NCBI GenBank assembly: GCA_016931595.1
Contig: JAFGEN010000354.1
Location: forward strand, 1 to 50,420
Direction: 5' to 3'
From: Candidatus Aminicenantes bacterium
Lineage (GTDB): Bacteria > Acidobacteriota > Aminicenantia > Aminicenantales > UBA4085
DNA length: 50,420 bases
Every line of letters begins with the position of its first letter. Positions within the stretch are counted from its first letter, which is position 1. The notes under the pieces were generated by a model. It had not been told where the DNA came from. It was given only the letters and a program-made list of their open reading frames with translations, and searched no databases. Both the position numbers and the translations under genes were made by a program. Of this stretch, positions 13,086-19,385 are shown one piece after another.

Positions 13086-14212
13086 GCGGCCGGGACGTCC
13101 TCATCGTCGCCGGTGAAAAATCCGGGGAAAACTACGGCGCGGCCGTCGTCCGGGAGTTCCACCGCCTTCAGCCCGAAACGGCCTTCTTCGGCGTCGGCGG
13201 AACCAACATGTCCGCCGCCGGGGTGGAGATTCTTGTTCCGATGGAGGATCTGGCGGTGATGGGACTGGCCGAAGTGGTCAGGGAGATCCCCAGGATCAAA
13301 CGAATCCTGAACCGGCTGGCCGAGGAAGCCCAAAACCGCCGGCCGGCCGCGGCCGTTCTGATCGACTCCCCCGATTTCAACCTTCGCCTGGCCAGGCTGT
13401 TGAAGCCGCTTGGAATACCGGTCCTTTATTACATCAGCCCGACGGTTTGGGCTTGGAGAAAAGGCCGCCTGGACACGATCCGGGATGTCGTCAGGAAAAT
13501 GCTCCTCATCTTCCCCTTTGAACAAGTCCTCTATGCCGAAGCGGGGATTCCCCATGCTTATGTCGGTCATCCTCTCCTCGAGCGTCTCCGCGTCCAGAAA
13601 TTGCGGGAGGAGTTTTTTCAGGAAAACGGGTTGGATCCGGACCGGCCTTTGATCACCCTGCTGCCCGGGAGCCGGAAAGGCGAGATCCAGCGGCACATCG
13701 GCCCGCTTCGCGACGCGGCCGACCGACTGCGGGCGGAACGAGGGGCGCAATTCGTCCTGATCGAAGCCGAAGACCTCGACCGCCGGTTCGTGCCCGACCT
13801 CCTCGGCGAGGCCGCCGGCCACATCCGCCGGCTTCGGACCGACGCCTACGAGGCCATGGCCGCAAGCGACTTGGTGCTGTCGGCCTGCGGCACGGCGAAT
13901 CTCGAATCGGCCCTCCTGGGGACTCCGTTGGTCGCCTTTTACCGAATCTCTCCCCTGACCTATGCCCTCGGACGGCCGTTTGTCCGGATCCGGAATTACA
14001 GCATTGTCAACATCCTGGCCGGGAAGAAGCTCATCGCCGAGCTGATCCAAAAAGACTTCACCGCGGCCAACCTGGTCCGGGAAGCGGAACGGATCCTGGA
14101 CGATGAGAACGTCCGGGCGGAAATGAAACTGTATTTCACCGCGATCCGGCAAACCCTGGGCGACGAGCGGGCCTCGGAGAACGTCGCCCGCGAGCTGGCC
14201 GCCTTATTGTGA
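13082..14212 (+). CDS. lpxB: Lipid-A-disaccharide synthase
   Basis: VAGEKSG, IDSPDFN, YYISPTVWAWR, IFPFE, YVGHPL, LLPGSRKGE, GTANLE. Confidence 0.97.
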   Translation: MSGRDVLIVAGEKSGENYGAAVVREFHRLQPETAFFGVGGTNMSAAGVEILVPMEDLAVMGLAEVVREIPRIKRILNRLAEEAQNRRPAAAVLIDSPDFNLRLARLLKPLGIPVLYYISPTVWAWRKGRLDTIRDVVRKMLLIFPFEQVLYAEAGIPHAYVGHPLLERLRVQKLREEFFQENGLDPDRPLITLLPGSRKGEIQRHIGPLRDAADRLRAERGAQFVLIEAEDLDRRFVPDLLGEAAGHIRRLRTDAYEAMAASDLVLSACGTANLESALLGTPLVAFYRISPLTYALGRPFVRIRNYSIVNILAGKKLIAELIQKDFTAANLVREAERILDDENVRAEMKLYFTAIRQTLGDERASENVARELAALL

Positions 14213-15118
14213 ACCGGGCCGCGATGAGGCGGCCGCAAGAGCCTTTACCCGACTGTCCACCGCCGTCTGCATCAGGAACAGGGCGGCCATCGCCCCGTTC
14301 AAGACGACGATCATCGCCCAGAAATACAGGTCGAGCCGACGGGCGAACAAGGCGGCGATCAGCAGGACCGCCTGAGTTGAAGACCCGAGGAACGTCCAGA
14401 GCCGCATCGGCAGGCGGTTGATCCGCATGAAGAGGCCGGCGTCGACCGATCCGAGGGCCATCGGATCCCGGCTGATTTTCATCTGGAAGGCCGTGTATCC
14501 GAGATAAAGGCGGATGAATCCGCGCCGGAATTTTTGTCCGCCCCGGCGCTTGAGCTGGACATATTCCCGCCGGAACGCATTCCGGTCATCGACCTGGGCG
14601 GACCTGGCCCCGTGGATGTAGGCCAGGTAGCGGTTCCGGTAATAATCGAAGACGACCGAATGGATGATGTTGCTGGCCGCCGCGGCCAGGACGATCAACC
14701 AGCCCCGGAGCGGGTCCGGGCCGGCGCTCATGAAGCCGAAGCCCAGGCCCAGGTAGACCGAAATGCCCACGAAGTAGTCGATCGACCCGTCGATCACCCG
14801 GCCCATGTGCGTCCCGTTTTTCTTCAGCCTGGCCAGCTGACCATCGGCGCAGTCGACGACGACGGACAGGAAGAGCAGGACGGCTCCCGCCGCGGCCGAG
14901 CCCCAGCCACGTGTGGCGAGGAGAAATCCGCCCGAGATCCCCAGAATCATCGAGAAAATGGAAAGGTGGTTGGGGGTGAAGCTGGTCCGGAAGATCGCCT
15001 TGACCAGGAGAAAGGCCAGCGGGCGGAAGACGAACAGGTCGGCCCATTCTTCGACATCCGGACGTTTGAGGGACCGGAAATACTCCAGGTAATAGTCGCG
15101 GGGCAGGGCCATCGTCAT
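14204..15118 (-). CDS. CDP-alcohol phosphotransferase family membrane protein
   Basis: TPNHLS and the signature DCADGQLAR...G-RVIDGSID (DxxDGxxAR...GxxxDxxxD); multiple TM helices; 4-bp overlap with the upstream fusion gene. Confidence 0.9.
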   Translation of the reverse strand: MTMALPRDYYLEYFRSLKRPDVEEWADLFVFRPLAFLLVKAIFRTSFTPNHLSIFSMILGISGGFLLATRGWGSAAAGAVLLFLSVVVDCADGQLARLKKNGTHMGRVIDGSIDYFVGISVYLGLGFGFMSAGPDPLRGWLIVLAAAASNIIHSVVFDYYRNRYLAYIHGARSAQVDDRNAFRREYVQLKRRGGQKFRRGFIRLYLGYTAFQMKISRDPMALGSVDAGLFMRINRLPMRLWTFLGSSTQAVLLIAALFARRLDLYFWAMIVVLNGAMAALFLMQTAVDSRVKALAAASSRPGSQ

Positions 15119-16932
15119 GCGCGGATCAGCGCCCGGAGGGCGGCCAGCAGTTGATCATCGTCGGCCTGGTCGCGGACCGTCAGCCGGACGAAGGGCCGGC
15201 CGCTAAAGCCGAGCTTGCCCGAAGCGTCCTTGATCAGGATGTCGAACTCGTTGAGCAGGATTTCTGACAATCCGGCCGGGGTCCAGGGTGGAAGTATTTC
15301 GCAGAGAACGTAATTGGCGTGAGACGGCAGGGCGCGGAGATACGGGATGTCCCGGAGTCCCAGGATGAACCGTTCCCGCTCGAGGACGATCTGGCGGCAG
15401 GCCGAACGGAAATCATTCCGGTGCTTGTCGATGACTTGGAGGAAATGCTCGGCGGGCGAGTTGATGTTCCAGATCGAGACTTCATTCCTGATGCGCCGGA
15501 GAAGGTCCAAGTCGGAAGAGGCGATGATTCCCAGGCGAAGTCCCGGCACGCCGTAGGATTTGCTGATGCTCTTGACCGCCGTGAGATTGGGCAGGCGGTT
15601 GAGCAGGTCGGGCTCGATCAGGGAATGGTCGTCCGAGCCGTCTGCGAAATCCAGGAACGATTCATCATAGATCAGCCGGATCTTCTTCTCGGCCAGGCCT
15701 TCGGCCAAGCGGACGGCATCCTGCCGGGGAATGAAGTTACCCGATGGATTGTCGGGATTGATGAGGATGAGGGAGGAGACCTGTTCCCTGGAACAAAAAT
15801 CCAGAAGATCGTCGGCGGTATAGCGGAAGTCGGGACGGGAAGGCGCAAACGGCTTGATGTTCTCCGGTCCGGCGCAGGCCCGGTATTCGTCGAACGTCGG
15901 GACCGGGATCCCGACCGGACCCTCGTCCCCCCGGAAGAGCGCCTTGATCAGCTCGCTGGCGCCGTTTCCGACCAGGATATGCTCGGGAGAGATCTCGAAC
16001 ATCTTGGCCGCCAGAAGATTCTGCACGTTCTGGCCCGAGGGATAATTGGCCACCAGCGTCGGAAAGCTCCGGGCCATCTCGGCGAACATCGCCGGCGTCG
16101 GGAAATAGGGATTGACGAGATAGCAGTAGTCCTTGAGCTTCGGGAACCGCCAGTACCCTCCGTAGCGGGCATGGAGGGCCTTGACCTTGGGTTCCCCCTT
16201 GGCGAAGAGGGCATGGGCGATATCCAGGTCCTGGAGATCGTCGATCTCGTACCAGAGGCGGCCGCTGACGTCCAGGGCCTTGAGCGCCCCGCGGTCGATG
16301 AAGGTCAACAGCTTGAAGACTTCCTCGTAATATTCGTTCAAGCCCTTGGCCTTGATGTAGACATCCAGGAAGGGGAAAAACTTGTCCCGGCAGAAGGCCC
16401 GGGAGAGCTTGTAGATGTTGACCGTCTTGTAATATTGGGCCAGTTCGGACTCGACCATCTCCTTCTTCCCAAGGAAGCAGGTGATGTCGTGGTCCTCCCC
16501 CAACCGGGTCACCGTCCCGTCCATCCAGGACTCGAACCGGGCGACGACGGCCACGTTCGGAGAGGGGTGGAGGACGGAGTCCCGGATGATGGCCGGCTCG
16601 AAGATCAGGTCGCTTTCCAGAAGGATCGAGTCATCCTCCTCCATGGCTTCGCGGGCCAGGAACAGCGAATAGATATTGTTCGTCCGGGCGTAATCGGGGT
16701 TGTGGACGTAGGAAACGGAAATCCCGGAGTAGGACGGACCCAGAACCTCCTGGAATTCGTCCGCCCCGTGGCCGGTGACAATCACGGCTTTCCGGATACC
16801 CTGGGCTGCCAGCGCATCCAGGGCGTATTCGATCAGACGTTTCCCGTCGATTTTCACCATGCACTTGGTCGAGTTTCGGGTCAATTCGCCCAGCCGCTTG
16901 CCCATACCGGCGGCCAGAATAATGGCTTGCAT
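15115..16932 (-). CDS. Fusion of a LicC-like NTP (cytidylyl)transferase and a PLP-dependent class I/II (HisC/CobD-like) enzyme
   Basis: N-terminal ILAAGMGKRL...TKCM...TNNIYSL...ESDLIF...WYEIDD; C-terminal GNGASELI, NPDNPSG, DESF, KSISKSYGVPGLRLG (PLP lysine). Confidence 0.88.
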   Translation of the reverse strand: MQAIILAAGMGKRLGELTRNSTKCMVKIDGKRLIEYALDALAAQGIRKAVIVTGHGADEFQEVLGPSYSGISVSYVHNPDYARTNNIYSLFLAREAMEEDDSILLESDLIFEPAIIRDSVLHPSPNVAVVARFESWMDGTVTRLGEDHDITCFLGKKEMVESELAQYYKTVNIYKLSRAFCRDKFFPFLDVYIKAKGLNEYYEEVFKLLTFIDRGALKALDVSGRLWYEIDDLQDLDIAHALFAKGEPKVKALHARYGGYWRFPKLKDYCYLVNPYFPTPAMFAEMARSFPTLVANYPSGQNVQNLLAAKMFEISPEHILVGNGASELIKALFRGDEGPVGIPVPTFDEYRACAGPENIKPFAPSRPDFRYTADDLLDFCSREQVSSLILINPDNPSGNFIPRQDAVRLAEGLAEKKIRLIYDESFLDFADGSDDHSLIEPDLLNRLPNLTAVKSISKSYGVPGLRLGIIASSDLDLLRRIRNEVSIWNINSPAEHFLQVIDKHRNDFRSACRQIVLERERFILGLRDIPYLRALPSHANYVLCEILPPWTPAGLSEILLNEFDILIKDASGKLGFSGRPFVRLTVRDQADDDQLLAALRALIRA

Positions 16933-17016
16933 CAGATGTACCTCGTCGTATTATGCGGGCGTATTATCTTAGCGAAACCGTCCTATAAAAGCAAAGGGAT
17001 TCGACCCCTCTCTGCT

Positions 17017-18468
17017 TCAATATGCCCGTGCGAAATGGGCCGCGGCCACGGCCGGCTTTCCGCAACAGAGGCAGGGGCCATCCTGGGGGGAGTCGTCTCC
17101 CGGCAGGATGACCCGGATGGTGGCCATCGTCTCGGTCTTGATTTTGTCCTCGCATTCCGCCCCGCCGCACCAGGGACTGACGACGAATCCACGCGACGAT
17201 TCCAGAACCGACTTGAACTCATCGTACGCTTGGACCCGCCGGGTGTTGGCCGTAAGGAAGGTCCCGGCCTGGTCAAAAAGGACCGCCTGGATCTCATCCA
17301 GAAGGGCGGGAACCCGGACGGCCAAATCCGCCAGGGGGACGGCCTGCTTGGTCTTCAAATCCCGGCGGACGCAAACGGCCTGGCCGTTTTTCACGTCGCG
17401 GGGACCGATCTCGATCCGCAGAGGGATGCCGCGCATCTCATATTCTGAGAATTTCCAGCCGGGGGTGGCTTCCTCCCGGGCATCAAGCTGAACCCGGACC
17501 CCGGCCTTCCTCAAGGACTCGGCCGCGGCCTGGGCCGCCGGTAGGACCGTCGTCTTCCAGTCTCCGAACGGGATCGGGATGATGACAACCTGGACCGGGG
17601 CGATCCGCGGCGGGAACCGGAGCCCGGAATCGTCGCCGTGGACCATGATCAAGGCCCCGATCGTCCGGGTGGTCATTCCCCAGGACGTCTGCCAGACGTA
17701 CTGGAGGGTCTGGCTCTGATCCTCGAACTTGATGTCGAACGCCCTTGAGAAGTGCTGGCCGAGGTTGTGGGACGTCCCCATCTGGAGGGCCTTGCCGTCG
17801 GACATGAGCGCCTCGATGGCATAGGTCATCTGGGCTCCGGCGAACTTTTCCCGCGGCGTCTTGTGCCCGGCCAGCACCGGGATGGCCAGCTCCGTTTCGC
17901 AGAACTCCTTGTACATCGTCAGGATGGATAGGGTTTCCACCTCGGCTTCTTCGGCCGTGGCGTGGCAGGTGTGACCTTCCTGCCAGAGGAATTCCGTCGT
18001 CCTGAGGAAGGGCCGGGTGACCTTTTCCCATCGGACGATGTTGGCCCACTGGTTGATCAGGACGGGCAGGTCCCGCCAAGATTTGATCCATTTCGAATAC
18101 ATCGGCCCGATGACGGCTTCCGAGGTCGGACGGACGGCCAGCCGCTCCTCGAGCTCTTCCTTCCCTCCGACCGTGACCCAGGCGACCTCGGGGGCGAATC
18201 CCTCGACGTGTTCGGCTTCCTTCTTGAGGAAGCTCTCCGGAATGAATAGGGGGAAATAAGCGTTGACGTGGCCCAGGGCCTTGATCCGCCGGTCCAGCCT
18301 TTGCTGGATATTCTCCCAGACGGCATAGCCATACGGACGAATGACCATCATCCCCTTCATCGGGGTGTAGTCGGCCAGCTCGGCCTTTTGAACGATTTCC
18401 CCGTACCATCGGGAAAAATCTTCGGTTTTCGGAGTGATCTGCTTCACAAGGCGTTCGTTCGCGCTCAC
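17017..18468 (-). CDS. proS: Proline--tRNA ligase, archaeal/eukaryote-type (no INS domain)
   Basis: YFPLFIP, EAEHVEGFAPE, RPTSE, QWANIVRWE, FLRTTEFLWQEGHT, GTSHNLGQHF, C-terminal Cys cluster and ARAY end; GTG start. Confidence 0.98.
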   Translation of the reverse strand: MSANERLVKQITPKTEDFSRWYGEIVQKAELADYTPMKGMMVIRPYGYAVWENIQQRLDRRIKALGHVNAYFPLFIPESFLKKEAEHVEGFAPEVAWVTVGGKEELEERLAVRPTSEAVIGPMYSKWIKSWRDLPVLINQWANIVRWEKVTRPFLRTTEFLWQEGHTCHATAEEAEVETLSILTMYKEFCETELAIPVLAGHKTPREKFAGAQMTYAIEALMSDGKALQMGTSHNLGQHFSRAFDIKFEDQSQTLQYVWQTSWGMTTRTIGALIMVHGDDSGLRFPPRIAPVQVVIIPIPFGDWKTTVLPAAQAAAESLRKAGVRVQLDAREEATPGWKFSEYEMRGIPLRIEIGPRDVKNGQAVCVRRDLKTKQAVPLADLAVRVPALLDEIQAVLFDQAGTFLTANTRRVQAYDEFKSVLESSRGFVVSPWCGGAECEDKIKTETMATIRVILPGDDSPQDGPCLCCGKPAVAAAHFARAY

Positions 18469-18582
18469 GTTCGTCTCCCGGGGAAAAATGCTGGTTCATT
18501 CTAGCTTCGGTCCGGCGTCCTGTCAAATGGCAATCAAAAGGGAAAAGAGACGACGGCGGAAGGTGAGCGCCCGGACGGAGGA

Positions 18583-18641
18583 TATCACCCTTTTTATCAC
18601 CCTCAGGGGTGATTGACCCCCTTGACGCTTCCCGCGAAAAT
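18583..18641 (+). promoter_or_regulatory. Putative regulator-binding site and promoter upstream of the PilZ/LuxR cluster
   Basis: TATCACCCT direct repeat (18583, 18595); palindrome ATCACCC-TCAG-GGGTGAT (18596-18613) abutting TTGACC (18613-18618); possible weak -10 GAAAAT 17 bp downstream. Confidence 0.5.
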
Positions 18642-18676
18642 AGCCACGTCGATAGAAACCATAAGGAAGCGATGAC

Positions 18677-19039
18677 ATGGTGACAAAGATTCCGGCGGAC
18701 AACATGGACCTTCTGGGGCCGAAGAAGCAGGGCTTCACCTTCCCCCTGCCCACCCAGGTCGAAGGGCTGAACGCCAAGGGCCGGGACTTCTCCGAGGAAA
18801 CCGTCCTGACCTTCATCAGCCACGAGGGTTCCTCGTTCTGCCTGAAAAATCCAATCCAGGTCGGTTCCCGATTGAAAATGATCGTCGACCTCCCGGAACG
18901 GCTCGCCGACAATGTCCCCCTTAAGCTCGTCATCCGCGGCCGGGTGGCCAAAATCGAGGCCGTCTCGGGCGGCAACAGCGCCCAGCGGGTGACGCTCAAA
19001 TTCGACAGCAAATACATCATCAAGCCCGAGGACGCCTAA
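18677..19039 (+). CDS. PilZ-fold protein lacking the RxxxR motif
   Basis: Aligns by eye with 20199-20591 (LP-x-V-x-G...G..F.E.T...IS..G..F.L...G..L...LP...I.G.V); the RxxxR position reads KKQGF. Confidence 0.7.
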   Translation: MVTKIPADNMDLLGPKKQGFTFPLPTQVEGLNAKGRDFSEETVLTFISHEGSSFCLKNPIQVGSRLKMIVDLPERLADNVPLKLVIRGRVAKIEAVSGGNSAQRVTLKFDSKYIIKPEDA

Positions 19040-19040
19040 G

Positions 19041-19385
19041 ATGCCTGAAGACGGAGAAAAACCCGGCTCCCGGACATTCGAGATCGCCCTGCCCGCCCTG
19101 ATCCAAGGTTTAGATAAGGGCGAGCGCGAATTCGCCGAACAGACCGTGGTGTCAACCATCAACGCGGAGGAAGCCGTCGTCCTCCTTCGGTCGAAAGTCA
19201 AGCCGGGAGCCAAGATCCGCCTCTCGCTCCACATCCCCCGGACGTTCTTCCTGGAAAAGCCCCTGGACCTCAATCTGACCGGGACGATTTCGGAGATCCC
19301 CGCGCCGGAGAAGGGAGTCCGGGCGAAAGCGGCGGTCCGCGTCCGCCTGGACGATCGGTTCAGCATTCTCCCCGCCTCAGTATAA
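19041..19385 (+). CDS. PilZ-fold protein, degenerate in both c-di-GMP motifs
   Basis: Paralog of the neighbours (LPALIQGLD...EFAEQTVVSTINAEEA...PGAKIRLSLHIP); both RxxxR and [DN]xSxxG are lost. Confidence 0.65.
   Translation: MPEDGEKPGSRTFEIALPALIQGLDKGEREFAEQTVVSTINAEEAVVLLRSKVKPGAKIRLSLHIPRTFFLEKPLDLNLTGTISEIPAPEKGVRAKAAVRVRLDDRFSILPASV

Follow-up and report, generated by a model that had tools for sequence, protein, structure and literature searches.

A putative kinase-free route from phosphoserine to phosphatidylethanolamine in a Candidatus Aminicenantes lineage

A fused enzyme gene and a membrane transferase gene overlap end to end in a 50,420-nt contig stretch of Candidatus Aminicenantes (the window; its genome, handle G000, is 87% complete), and they raise the question of what the two proteins would make together. 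The first, P0001, is predicted to join a nucleoside triphosphate (NTP) transferase domain to a pyridoxal phosphate (PLP) enzyme, and the second, P0002, is predicted to be a cytidine diphosphate (CDP)-alcohol phosphotransferase. On balance, we favour the answer that the pair encodes a kinase-free Kennedy-type route from phosphoserine to phosphatidylethanolamine (PE). The more general interpretation, in which a CDP-amino-alcohol is attached to a membrane lipid, is probable. Both start from what is observed: the domains, their catalytic residues, the coupling of the two genes, the repeated association of the three activities, and no match to pssA and psd, the genes of the canonical PE pathway.

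Each open reading frame (ORF) occurs exactly where a sequence-only reading of this DNA had put it, and the architecture described there, an NTP transferase fused to a HisC/CobD-like PLP domain and followed by a CDP-alcohol phosphotransferase, is confirmed by Pfam domains. The features of the pair are as follows.

15115..16932, minus strand: fusion gene P0001 (605 aa), from the ORF and its translation with Pfam and NCBIfam domains; stop codon at 15115-15117
16198..16932, minus strand: LicC/PntC-like NTP (cytidylyl) transferase domain, P0001 residues ~1-245, from PDB matches and invariant residues
15118..16140, minus strand: class I/II PLP domain of the CobD/HisC subgroup, P0001 residues ~265-605, with PLP lysine K458
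14204..15118, minus strand: P0002, CDP-alcohol phosphotransferase (304 aa), an all-helical membrane protein, from PF01066, an intact motif and an AlphaFold model
15115..15118, minus strand: ATGA stop/start overlap of P0001 and P0002 (4 bases), read from the sequence

The two proteins and the proposed reactions

The N-terminal part of P0001 (residues 3-134) matches the Pfam NTP_transf_3 and NTP_transferase families (E 1e-13), and its nearest structures are LicC of S. pneumoniae (1jyk, E 1.7e-15) and the PntC domain of Tde1415 (6pd1, E 2.4e-14). The LicC/PntC signature is present as LAAGMGKRL, with R13 and K23 aligned to Arg15 and Lys25 of Tde-PntC, and R13, K23, E106 and E203 are each conserved without exception in the 120 fusion-family members compared. 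According to Rice et al. (PMC6697681), the amine pocket contains Glu104 and Glu196 in PntC, which is specific for aminoethylphosphonate, and Asp105 and Asp192 in the choline-specific LicC. E106 of P0001 aligns with Tde E104 and LicC D105, and E203 aligns, in a weakly aligned stretch, with LicC D192 (equivalent to Tde E196 in the same paper). A PntC-like Glu/Glu pocket of this kind fits a small primary-amine head group and not choline; because its second position lies in the weakly aligned stretch, we treat it as a lead rather than as proof.

Residues 296-599 match the Aminotran_1_2 family (Pfam, E 1.2e-27). K458, within the motif SKSYG, aligns to the PLP lysine of 6oux and of HisC structures and, like D423, N395 and R466, is invariant in 120 of 120 family members, so that it is predicted to be the PLP lysine of a class I/II enzyme. 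The best structural match to this domain is 6oux, named 'threonine phosphate decarboxylase-like enzyme' (E 2.2e-39, 138.9 bits), well ahead of the best HisC structure (E 8e-26, 94 bits) and of Salmonella CobD (E 2e-22). Among named models, the CobD model TIGR01140 scores highest, with 145.1 bits under an equivalog cut-off of 290.55, and the HisC model TIGR01141 reaches 126.1 bits under a cut-off of 276.55; CobD also outscores HisC in the fusion of another genome, G015. Because both scores are far below their cut-offs, the PLP domain appears to be a subfamily of its own, nearer to the decarboxylases. The ranking of these matches favours decarboxylation over transamination, with phosphoserine as the presumed substrate. 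We know of no residue signature that separates the two reactions in the CobD/HisC subgroup.

A search with the PLP domain alone returned nearly only slightly shorter fusions, with no informative names. The molecule name of 6oux is the annotation of SMUL_1544 of Sulfurospirillum multivorans. On this name match, we take 6oux to be SMUL_1544, a putative serine-phosphate decarboxylase. According to the title of a cited reference, SMUL_1544 governs norcobamide synthesis. In C. jejuni, Cj1436 is reported to convert serine phosphate to ethanolamine phosphate by decarboxylation, and Cj1437 to form serinol phosphate.

P0002 matches the CDP-OH_P_transf family over residues 48-153 (PF01066, E 6.6e-11; 43.3 bits against a cut-off of 22), and its translation holds the complete motif D89-x2-D92-G-x2-A-R-x8-G106-x3-D110-x3-D114 (D89, D92, G93, A96, R97, G106, D110 and D114). 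The motif is mostly invariant in 10 relatives, with D114 kept in 8 of the 10, and we assign P0002 to the CDP-alcohol phosphotransferase family on this basis. The AlphaFold model (pLDDT 85.3) has 11 helices and is closest in fold to AF2299 (TM 0.56), then to phosphatidylinositol-phosphate (PIP) synthases and IPCT-DIPPS enzymes; structures of CEPT1 and CHPT1 are among its weak fold matches, at ranks 20-22. A sequence search of the PDB with P0002 gave matches limited to AF2299 and PIP synthases, and the nearest named models are those of archaetidylinositol-phosphate and PIP synthases (E 1e-11; 44 bits against a cut-off of 180). As far as can be judged from sequence and fold, these matches fit a CDP-alcohol and a CDP-diacylglycerol donor alike. 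The gene context points to the former, as NTP-transferase genes adjoin 15 of 23 well-flanked relatives.

In the proposed scheme, phosphoserine, an intermediate of serine synthesis formed via SerC, would be decarboxylated by the CobD-like PLP domain, and the LicC/PntC-like domain of P0001 would join the substrate to CMP, giving CDP-ethanolamine. P0002 would then transfer phosphoethanolamine from CDP-ethanolamine to diacylglycerol to yield PE, and the route would replace PssA and Psd in the Aminicenantes lineage of the window. The substrate, its decarboxylation, the use of CTP, the diacylglycerol acceptor and the PE product are what we infer here. FrbH, from the FR-900098 pathway of Streptomyces, is described in PMC9088020 as cytidylylating and decarboxylating an amino-acid phosphonate to a CMP-linked amine. 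Because FrbH does both within one protein, the steps could occur in either order in P0001 as well, the first product being phosphoethanolamine or, by analogy with FrbH and its phosphonate, CDP-serine.

The gene content of G000 is consistent with this scheme. SerC is encoded (452.9 bits, over cut-off), so phosphoserine is expected to be made. The sequence-only reading had named pssA and psd as the genes to look for, and the 87%-complete genome has no match to psd (PF02666) and none over cut-off to pssA (TIGR00473), for which paralogues reach 20-26 bits only. No match to choline/ethanolamine kinase (PF01633) or to phosphoenolpyruvate (PEP) mutase (TIGR02320) was obtained in the same genome, and CbiB was not found in it. 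A separate HisC (263.8-265.6 bits) is encoded between hisG and hisB on contig C112. There are four CDP-alcohol phosphotransferase genes: pgsA, a pgsA/ClsA-like gene, P0002, and one member of a pair on contig C291. In that pair (locus L083, plus strand), an IPCT-like NTP transferase gene (624-1370, 248 aa) overlaps an AIPS/DIPPS-like CDP-alcohol phosphotransferase gene (1339-2022, 227 aa), and together they are predicted to be a second Kennedy-style head-group module.

Within the window, the ATGA shared by the stop of P0001 and the start of P0002 upholds the earlier claim of translational coupling, which we predict for the pair. The surrounding genes are of housekeeping type (rpsO, pnp, pseudopilins, lpxB, proS, a LuxR-type regulator, PilZ, coaE and SPOR). 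lpxB is convergent with P0002, the gene ends overlapping, and is placed outside the operon because it lies on the opposite strand; proS lies upstream of P0001 on the same strand. No kinase, LicD or capsule genes occur within ~8 kb of the pair, as the sequence-only reading had noted, and for the kinase family PF01633 the absence extends to the whole of the 87%-complete genome. P0001 and P0002 may be transcribed as a unit of their own, and the spacer that precedes them is listed below; its hairpin and GAGG come from consensus scans only, which are no evidence of function.

16933..17016, minus strand: 84-base spacer between proS and P0001, with a terminator-like hairpin at 16993-17011 and GAGG 8 bases before the ATG

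Two further ORFs run across proS and the fusion in different frames. One (17483-19366, minus strand, 627 aa) is low in complexity, rich in Arg, Gly and Pro, and has no family match; the other (15319-17448, plus strand) is 709 aa long. Both look like spurious high-GC frames. A chance ORF pair is excluded for P0001 and P0002 because databases contain at least 7999 relatives of the fusion; the top 120 are all 49-89% identical over their full length.

Distribution and gene neighbourhoods

Genomes of the class (121 in the sample) and of the phylum (151) were examined for the two genes and for psd, and those of the class also for pssA. psd occurs in 139 of the 151 phylum-sample genomes and in 101 of the 121 class-sample genomes, 99 of which 121 have pssA. 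The fusion was found in three class genomes, namely G000, G249 (57% identical) and G233 (39% identical). A full-length P0002-like gene was found in 22, including all five of the window's family, f1, where the orthologues share 46-48% identity with P0002, and the two genomes of family f65. Neither psd nor pssA was found in the f1 genomes other than G000 (0/4 for each) or in f65 (0/2 for each). The same holds for G151-G155, the genomes of loci L001-L005, which carry both genes and may overlap class-sample genomes under other handles: psd is found in 0/5 and pssA over cut-off in 0/5, with no pssA found in G153. The combination that marks the canonical pathway, pssA (TIGR00473) with psd (PF02666), was found neither in G000 nor in G151-G155 nor in f1. 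Five classmates that have no fusion all have a psd match and a pssA over cut-off, and in three of them (G133, G027 and G008) pssA adjoins psd. The loss of pssA and psd in carriers of the orthologous pair fits a replacement of the PE route.

The three activities recur together in both fused and split form. In G233 the fused form adjoins the transferase, an adjacency shared with the window and with loci L001, L004 and L092-L094, whereas G249 has its fusion and its P0002 orthologue on different contigs, the transferase being again convergent with lpxB. Three f1 genomes (G257, G189 and G181) have a three-gene cassette in which the P0002 orthologue lies between a HisC-like PLP gene and an NTP transferase gene; the unpublished genome G024 has the same cassette, and no conclusion rests on G024 alone. 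Because G257 also has a canonical HisC, its cassette gene is taken to be a paralogue. The P0002-like genes of G085 and G061 have no related neighbour. The phylum sample's best P0002-like match is in G061, a 75%-complete genome in which neither pssA, psd nor a fusion-like gene was found. In the psd-positive G212, the P0002-like gene (C1:462649-463497) is broken by three stop codons and is therefore likely a pseudogene.

Relatives of the transferase in metagenomes add further head-group modules. An alignment of ten P0002-like proteins was used to scan metagenomes, the best 80 of 548 confirmed relatives were examined, and contexts were counted at the 23 loci that reach 30% identity or more and have no less than 1 kb of sequence on either side. 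An adjacent gene encodes an NTP-transferase domain at 15 of the 23 (as a separate gene immediately downstream in 12, as the fusion in two and as a PEP mutase-NTP transferase fusion in one) and at none of the other eight. The set of Aminotran_1_2, transferase and NTP transferase genes recurs, in L097, L130 and others. In L107 (5013-10610), a P0002 relative (35% identical) is followed by a PEP mutase-NTP transferase fusion, a phosphonopyruvate-decarboxylase-like thiamine pyrophosphate enzyme and a fusion of NTP transferase and Aminotran_5. Like the Tde1415 system, this set is a module for aminoethylphosphonate, the phosphonate counterpart of phosphoethanolamine, and it may be complete for making a lipid with that head group. 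L143-type loci encode MIPS, an NTP transferase, an unknown protein, the transferase (27-29% identical to P0002 in L143), LPG_synthase_TM and HAD proteins. At L088 (5256-8541), L089 (4653-9024) and L141 (3509-6913), the P0002 relative occurs with a class III aminotransferase and a GFO/IDH/MocA oxidoreductase, and L089 additionally has a flippase-like LPG_synthase_TM gene. In L088 and L089, another residue stands in place of the final Asp of the catalytic motif. The head group at these three loci may be that of an amino-polyol lipid. The common thread is a predicted one: a cytidylyltransferase would activate a small head group, which then passes to a membrane enzyme of the P0002 family, with lipid-type accessory genes nearby.

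The fusion family has a different distribution. Among the best 80 of 321 confirmed fusion loci, a P0002-like gene is present in five, all Aminicenantes-like, and absent from 75. Neighbours were surveyed at 73 loci in which a crude ORF caller found the fusion, taking three genes per side, clustering the 384 ORFs and scanning one representative per cluster. TagF-like Glyphos_transf proteins occur near the fusion at 19 of the 73 loci, Octopine_DH/G3P-DH-like proteins at 18 (usually just downstream outside Aminicenantes, e.g. L008, L023 and L035), a 900-aa protein with a YidC-like domain at 16, LicD at 12 plus 7 in a second cluster, and an ornithine-cyclodeaminase-like protein at 6; glycosyltransferases are also found. 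In Treponema, Bacteroidales, Clostridia, Atopobiaceae and others, the fusion is predicted to feed glycan- or teichoic-type transferases, so that the activated product would be generic and the transferase would set its destination. Loci that combine the fusion with Octopine_DH/G3P-DH-like and TagF-like or LicD genes may direct decoration of a glycan with an N-carboxyalkylated phospho-amine, or may be relatives of pneumococcal Gtp1-3 (CDP-2-glycerol pathway), whose gene names and order are given in PMC1391919 and PMC5581491. In another Acidobacteriota genome, G015 (L090: 4344-11500), a 36%-identical fusion overlaps a different, PssA-like CDP-alcohol phosphotransferase (237 aa), beside a convergent S-adenosylmethionine methyltransferase gene and two transposase genes. 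A gene for a DUF192 protein lies directly upstream of the fusion in the close relative L001 (4993-5925) and immediately follows the HisC-like gene in the arrangement of L098, L100, L103 and L124 (L100: 1892-2461). The sequence-only reading had proposed co-occurrence of the two genes as a check, and the outcome is mixed: the fused gene mostly occurs apart from the transferase, and the three activities, fused or split, do occur together in Aminicenantes and in many metagenome loci.

Several of these observations weigh against the route from phosphoserine to PE. G015, G009 and G024 have the fusion or the split cassette in addition to pssA and psd, and psd is also present in 14 of the 22 class-sample carriers of a full-length P0002-like gene (32-38% identical in these, mostly of family f4). 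In family f64 (e.g. G170, G185, G195, G209 and G223), psd is missing from 11 of 13 genomes and pssA from 12, and a full-length P0002-like gene is found in one of the 13; life without PssA and Psd in the class Aminicenantia therefore needs no P0002 gene. Because f1, f64 and f65 share one order, as few as one or two events may lie behind the losses. The absence of pssA and psd was also considered as a clean predictor of the P0002 gene, and we set it aside as only partly clean, given f64 and the psd-positive f4 genomes. The absences in G000 are themselves unproven because the genome is 87% complete. At the level of the proteins, the top-scoring CobD model stays below its equivalog cut-off, the PLP genes of the split cassettes score HisC-like (203-247 bits) and not CobD-like, which makes a transaminase product such as serinol phosphate possible in those cassettes, and the matches of P0002 do not separate the two donor types. 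Since 75 of the 80 fusion loci have no P0002-like gene and carry TagF-like, LicD, opine-dehydrogenase-like or glycosyltransferase genes, the fusion product is not lipid-specific.

Other head groups, acceptors and pathway assignments

The alternative that survives best, although we consider it unlikely, keeps the same logic with another head group. Transamination of dihydroxyacetone phosphate would give serinol phosphate, or decarboxylation of threonine phosphate would give aminopropanol phosphate, and the product would be an undescribed phosphatidylserinol or phosphatidylaminopropanol. The CobD/HisC subgroup spans both reactions, as Cj1437 and Cj1436 indicate, and the PLP domain of P0001 stays under every equivalog cut-off. 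The HisC-like paralogue in the split cassettes of sister genomes points the same way, and the co-existence of a cassette with pssA and psd in G015, G009 and G024 would make sense if the product is not PE. On the other side, the fused PLP domain scores nearer to the decarboxylases than to HisC. Threonine phosphate would need a dedicated kinase and is otherwise cobamide-linked; CbiB, which belongs to cobamide synthesis, was not found in the 87%-complete genome. Every carrier of the orthologous pair has lost pssA and psd, consistent with a replacement of PE itself.

It is improbable that the CDP-amino-alcohol is passed to a non-lipid acceptor, either a soluble polyol phosphate, giving a compatible solute like those of IPCT/DIPPS, or a component of a glycan or lipopolysaccharide. 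The best PDB and NCBIfam matches of P0002 do include AF2299 and enzymes of IPCT-DIPPS type, lpxB is the convergent neighbour in both the window and G249, and the fusion family occurs mainly in glycan-type loci of other phyla. The glycan loci, however, employ TagF-like or LicD transferases and not the P0002 family, and the contexts of P0002 relatives are lipid-like, with the LPG_synthase_TM flippase-like gene, the phosphatidylinositol-lipid cluster of Heaver et al. and the aminoethylphosphonate module. A non-lipid acceptor would also leave the complementarity with pssA and psd unexplained. The IPCT/DIPPS solute was rejected on its model, NF041135, which gives 62.6 bits for the fusion and 34 bits for P0002 against a cut-off of 580. 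The sequence-only reading had listed PE, an unusual lipid or a solute as possible products; the pairing, the absence of pssA and psd, and SerC favour the lipid, with PE first, and the solute has found no support.

Just as improbable, in our estimation, is that the genes are unlinked in pathway, P0002 being a CDP-diacylglycerol-dependent enzyme (PIP-synthase-like, or a divergent phosphatidylserine or phosphatidylglycerol synthase) and the fusion product going to another transferase. The 4-base overlap in the window and the same adjacency in L001, L004, L092-L094 and G233 argue for linkage, as does the NTP-transferase domain next to 15 of the 23 well-flanked relatives, whereas G249 has the two genes on separate contigs and G085 and G061 have a P0002-like gene with no related neighbour. 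Archaetidylinositol-phosphate and PIP synthases are the nearest named models of P0002, yet its scores are far below their cut-offs, and G000 already has pgsA and a second pgsA/ClsA-like gene.

Hardly credible is a housekeeping role in the cobamide loop (CobD plus a CobY-like guanylyltransferase), as HisC, or in PntC-AEPT phosphonate tailoring: some relatives are named 'cobyric acid decarboxylase-like / GTP:adenosylcobinamide-phosphate guanylyltransferase' or 'histidinol-phosphate aminotransferase' and the N-terminal domain resembles Tde1415 PntC, but the equivalog cut-offs are all missed by a factor of about 2, and we rejected cobamide loop assembly on CbiB (not found in the 87%-complete genome), HisC on the separate copy in the hisG-hisC-hisB operon and on 126.1 bits against 276.55, and aminoethylphosphonate tailoring on PEP mutase (no match in the 87%-complete genome) and on a PLP domain of class I/II against class V in Tde1415.

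Relation to known systems and implications

The proposed route to PE resembles the eukaryotic Kennedy pathway (ethanolamine kinase, PCYT2 and EPT1/CEPT1), in which CTP-activated phosphoethanolamine is likewise passed to diacylglycerol by a transferase with the same catalytic motif. It would differ in being kinase-free and in using no free ethanolamine, the phospho-amine coming from phosphoserine via a fused PLP decarboxylase. The cytidylyltransferase of the window is predicted to have a LicC/GlmU-type fold, from which the fold of PCYT2 differs, and P0002 is far closer to the archaeal and bacterial AF2299 and PIP synthases than to CEPT1. To our knowledge, the only Kennedy-type phospholipid route known in bacteria is the CDP-choline route of Treponema denticola, which combines LicCA with a diacylglycerol cholinephosphotransferase. 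That route shares a LicC-type cytidylyltransferase and a CDP-alcohol:diacylglycerol transferase with the one proposed here, but it needs choline and the LicA kinase, makes phosphatidylcholine and has no PLP step.

Two characterised fusions are close to P0001 in design. FrbH, compared here by description only, has the same order of domains, an NTP transferase followed by a PLP decarboxylase in one chain, and PMC6697681 compares its conserved lysine with PntC; it differs in its phosphonate substrate, in serving an antibiotic pathway and in having no membrane transferase. The PntC-AEPT protein Tde1415 of Treponema denticola (PMC6697681, PDB 6pd1/6pd2) likewise fuses an N-terminal LicC-like domain to an amine-making PLP enzyme and shares the pocket Glu. 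Tde1415 needs PEP mutase, for which no match was found in the 87%-complete G000, and its PLP domain, which transaminates phosphonoacetaldehyde, is of class V, whereas the PLP domain of P0001 belongs to class I/II; P0001 is not a PntC-AEPT protein on these grounds. Cj1436 and SMUL_1544 are stand-alone enzymes that feed a capsule amide and the norcobamide linker, respectively, and not a lipid as proposed for the fusion.

For the transferase, a precedent is the putative alternative phosphatidylinositol pathway of Bacteroides vulgatus and Prevotella, a Kennedy-style route from CDP-inositol and diacylglycerol that Heaver et al. (2022, PMC9246714) propose and themselves call unconfirmed. It too pairs an NTP transferase with a CDP-alcohol phosphatidyltransferase, a gene set that L143 also has; its head group is inositol phosphate from MIPS, and no PLP enzyme takes part. 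Full-text searches, which left most subscription journals outside their coverage, found no paper describing a kinase-free bacterial PE route. What is new is a predicted kinase-free, PLP-fed entry from phosphoserine and a transferase family with no characterised member; Kennedy-type logic itself is known.

PssA and Psd are the enzymes to which bacterial PE is usually ascribed, and according to the abstract of PMC7952604 it is made 'exclusively' by Psd in most bacteria. We tentatively put forward a wider proposal, of which we are less confident than of the route itself. The lineage would have dropped PssA and Psd and would make PE from phosphoserine via the fusion and a CDP-ethanolamine:diacylglycerol transferase. 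The P0002 family would be a general bacterial transferase of CDP-linked head groups to lipids, served by interchangeable modules (amino alcohol, aminoethylphosphonate, inositol and amino-sugar-alcohol), in what would amount to an unnoticed modular Kennedy system.

If the proposed route is true, it would be a new entry into bacterial membrane-lipid synthesis, tying serine metabolism directly to head-group supply, and would explain the zwitterionic lipid of Aminicenantes that have neither pssA nor psd. It would give a function to an unnamed fusion family of at least 7999 relatives, members of which in gut bacteria appear to route the same activated amine to surface glycans, and the transferase family could be used to predict phosphono-, inositol- and amino-lipids from metagenomes.

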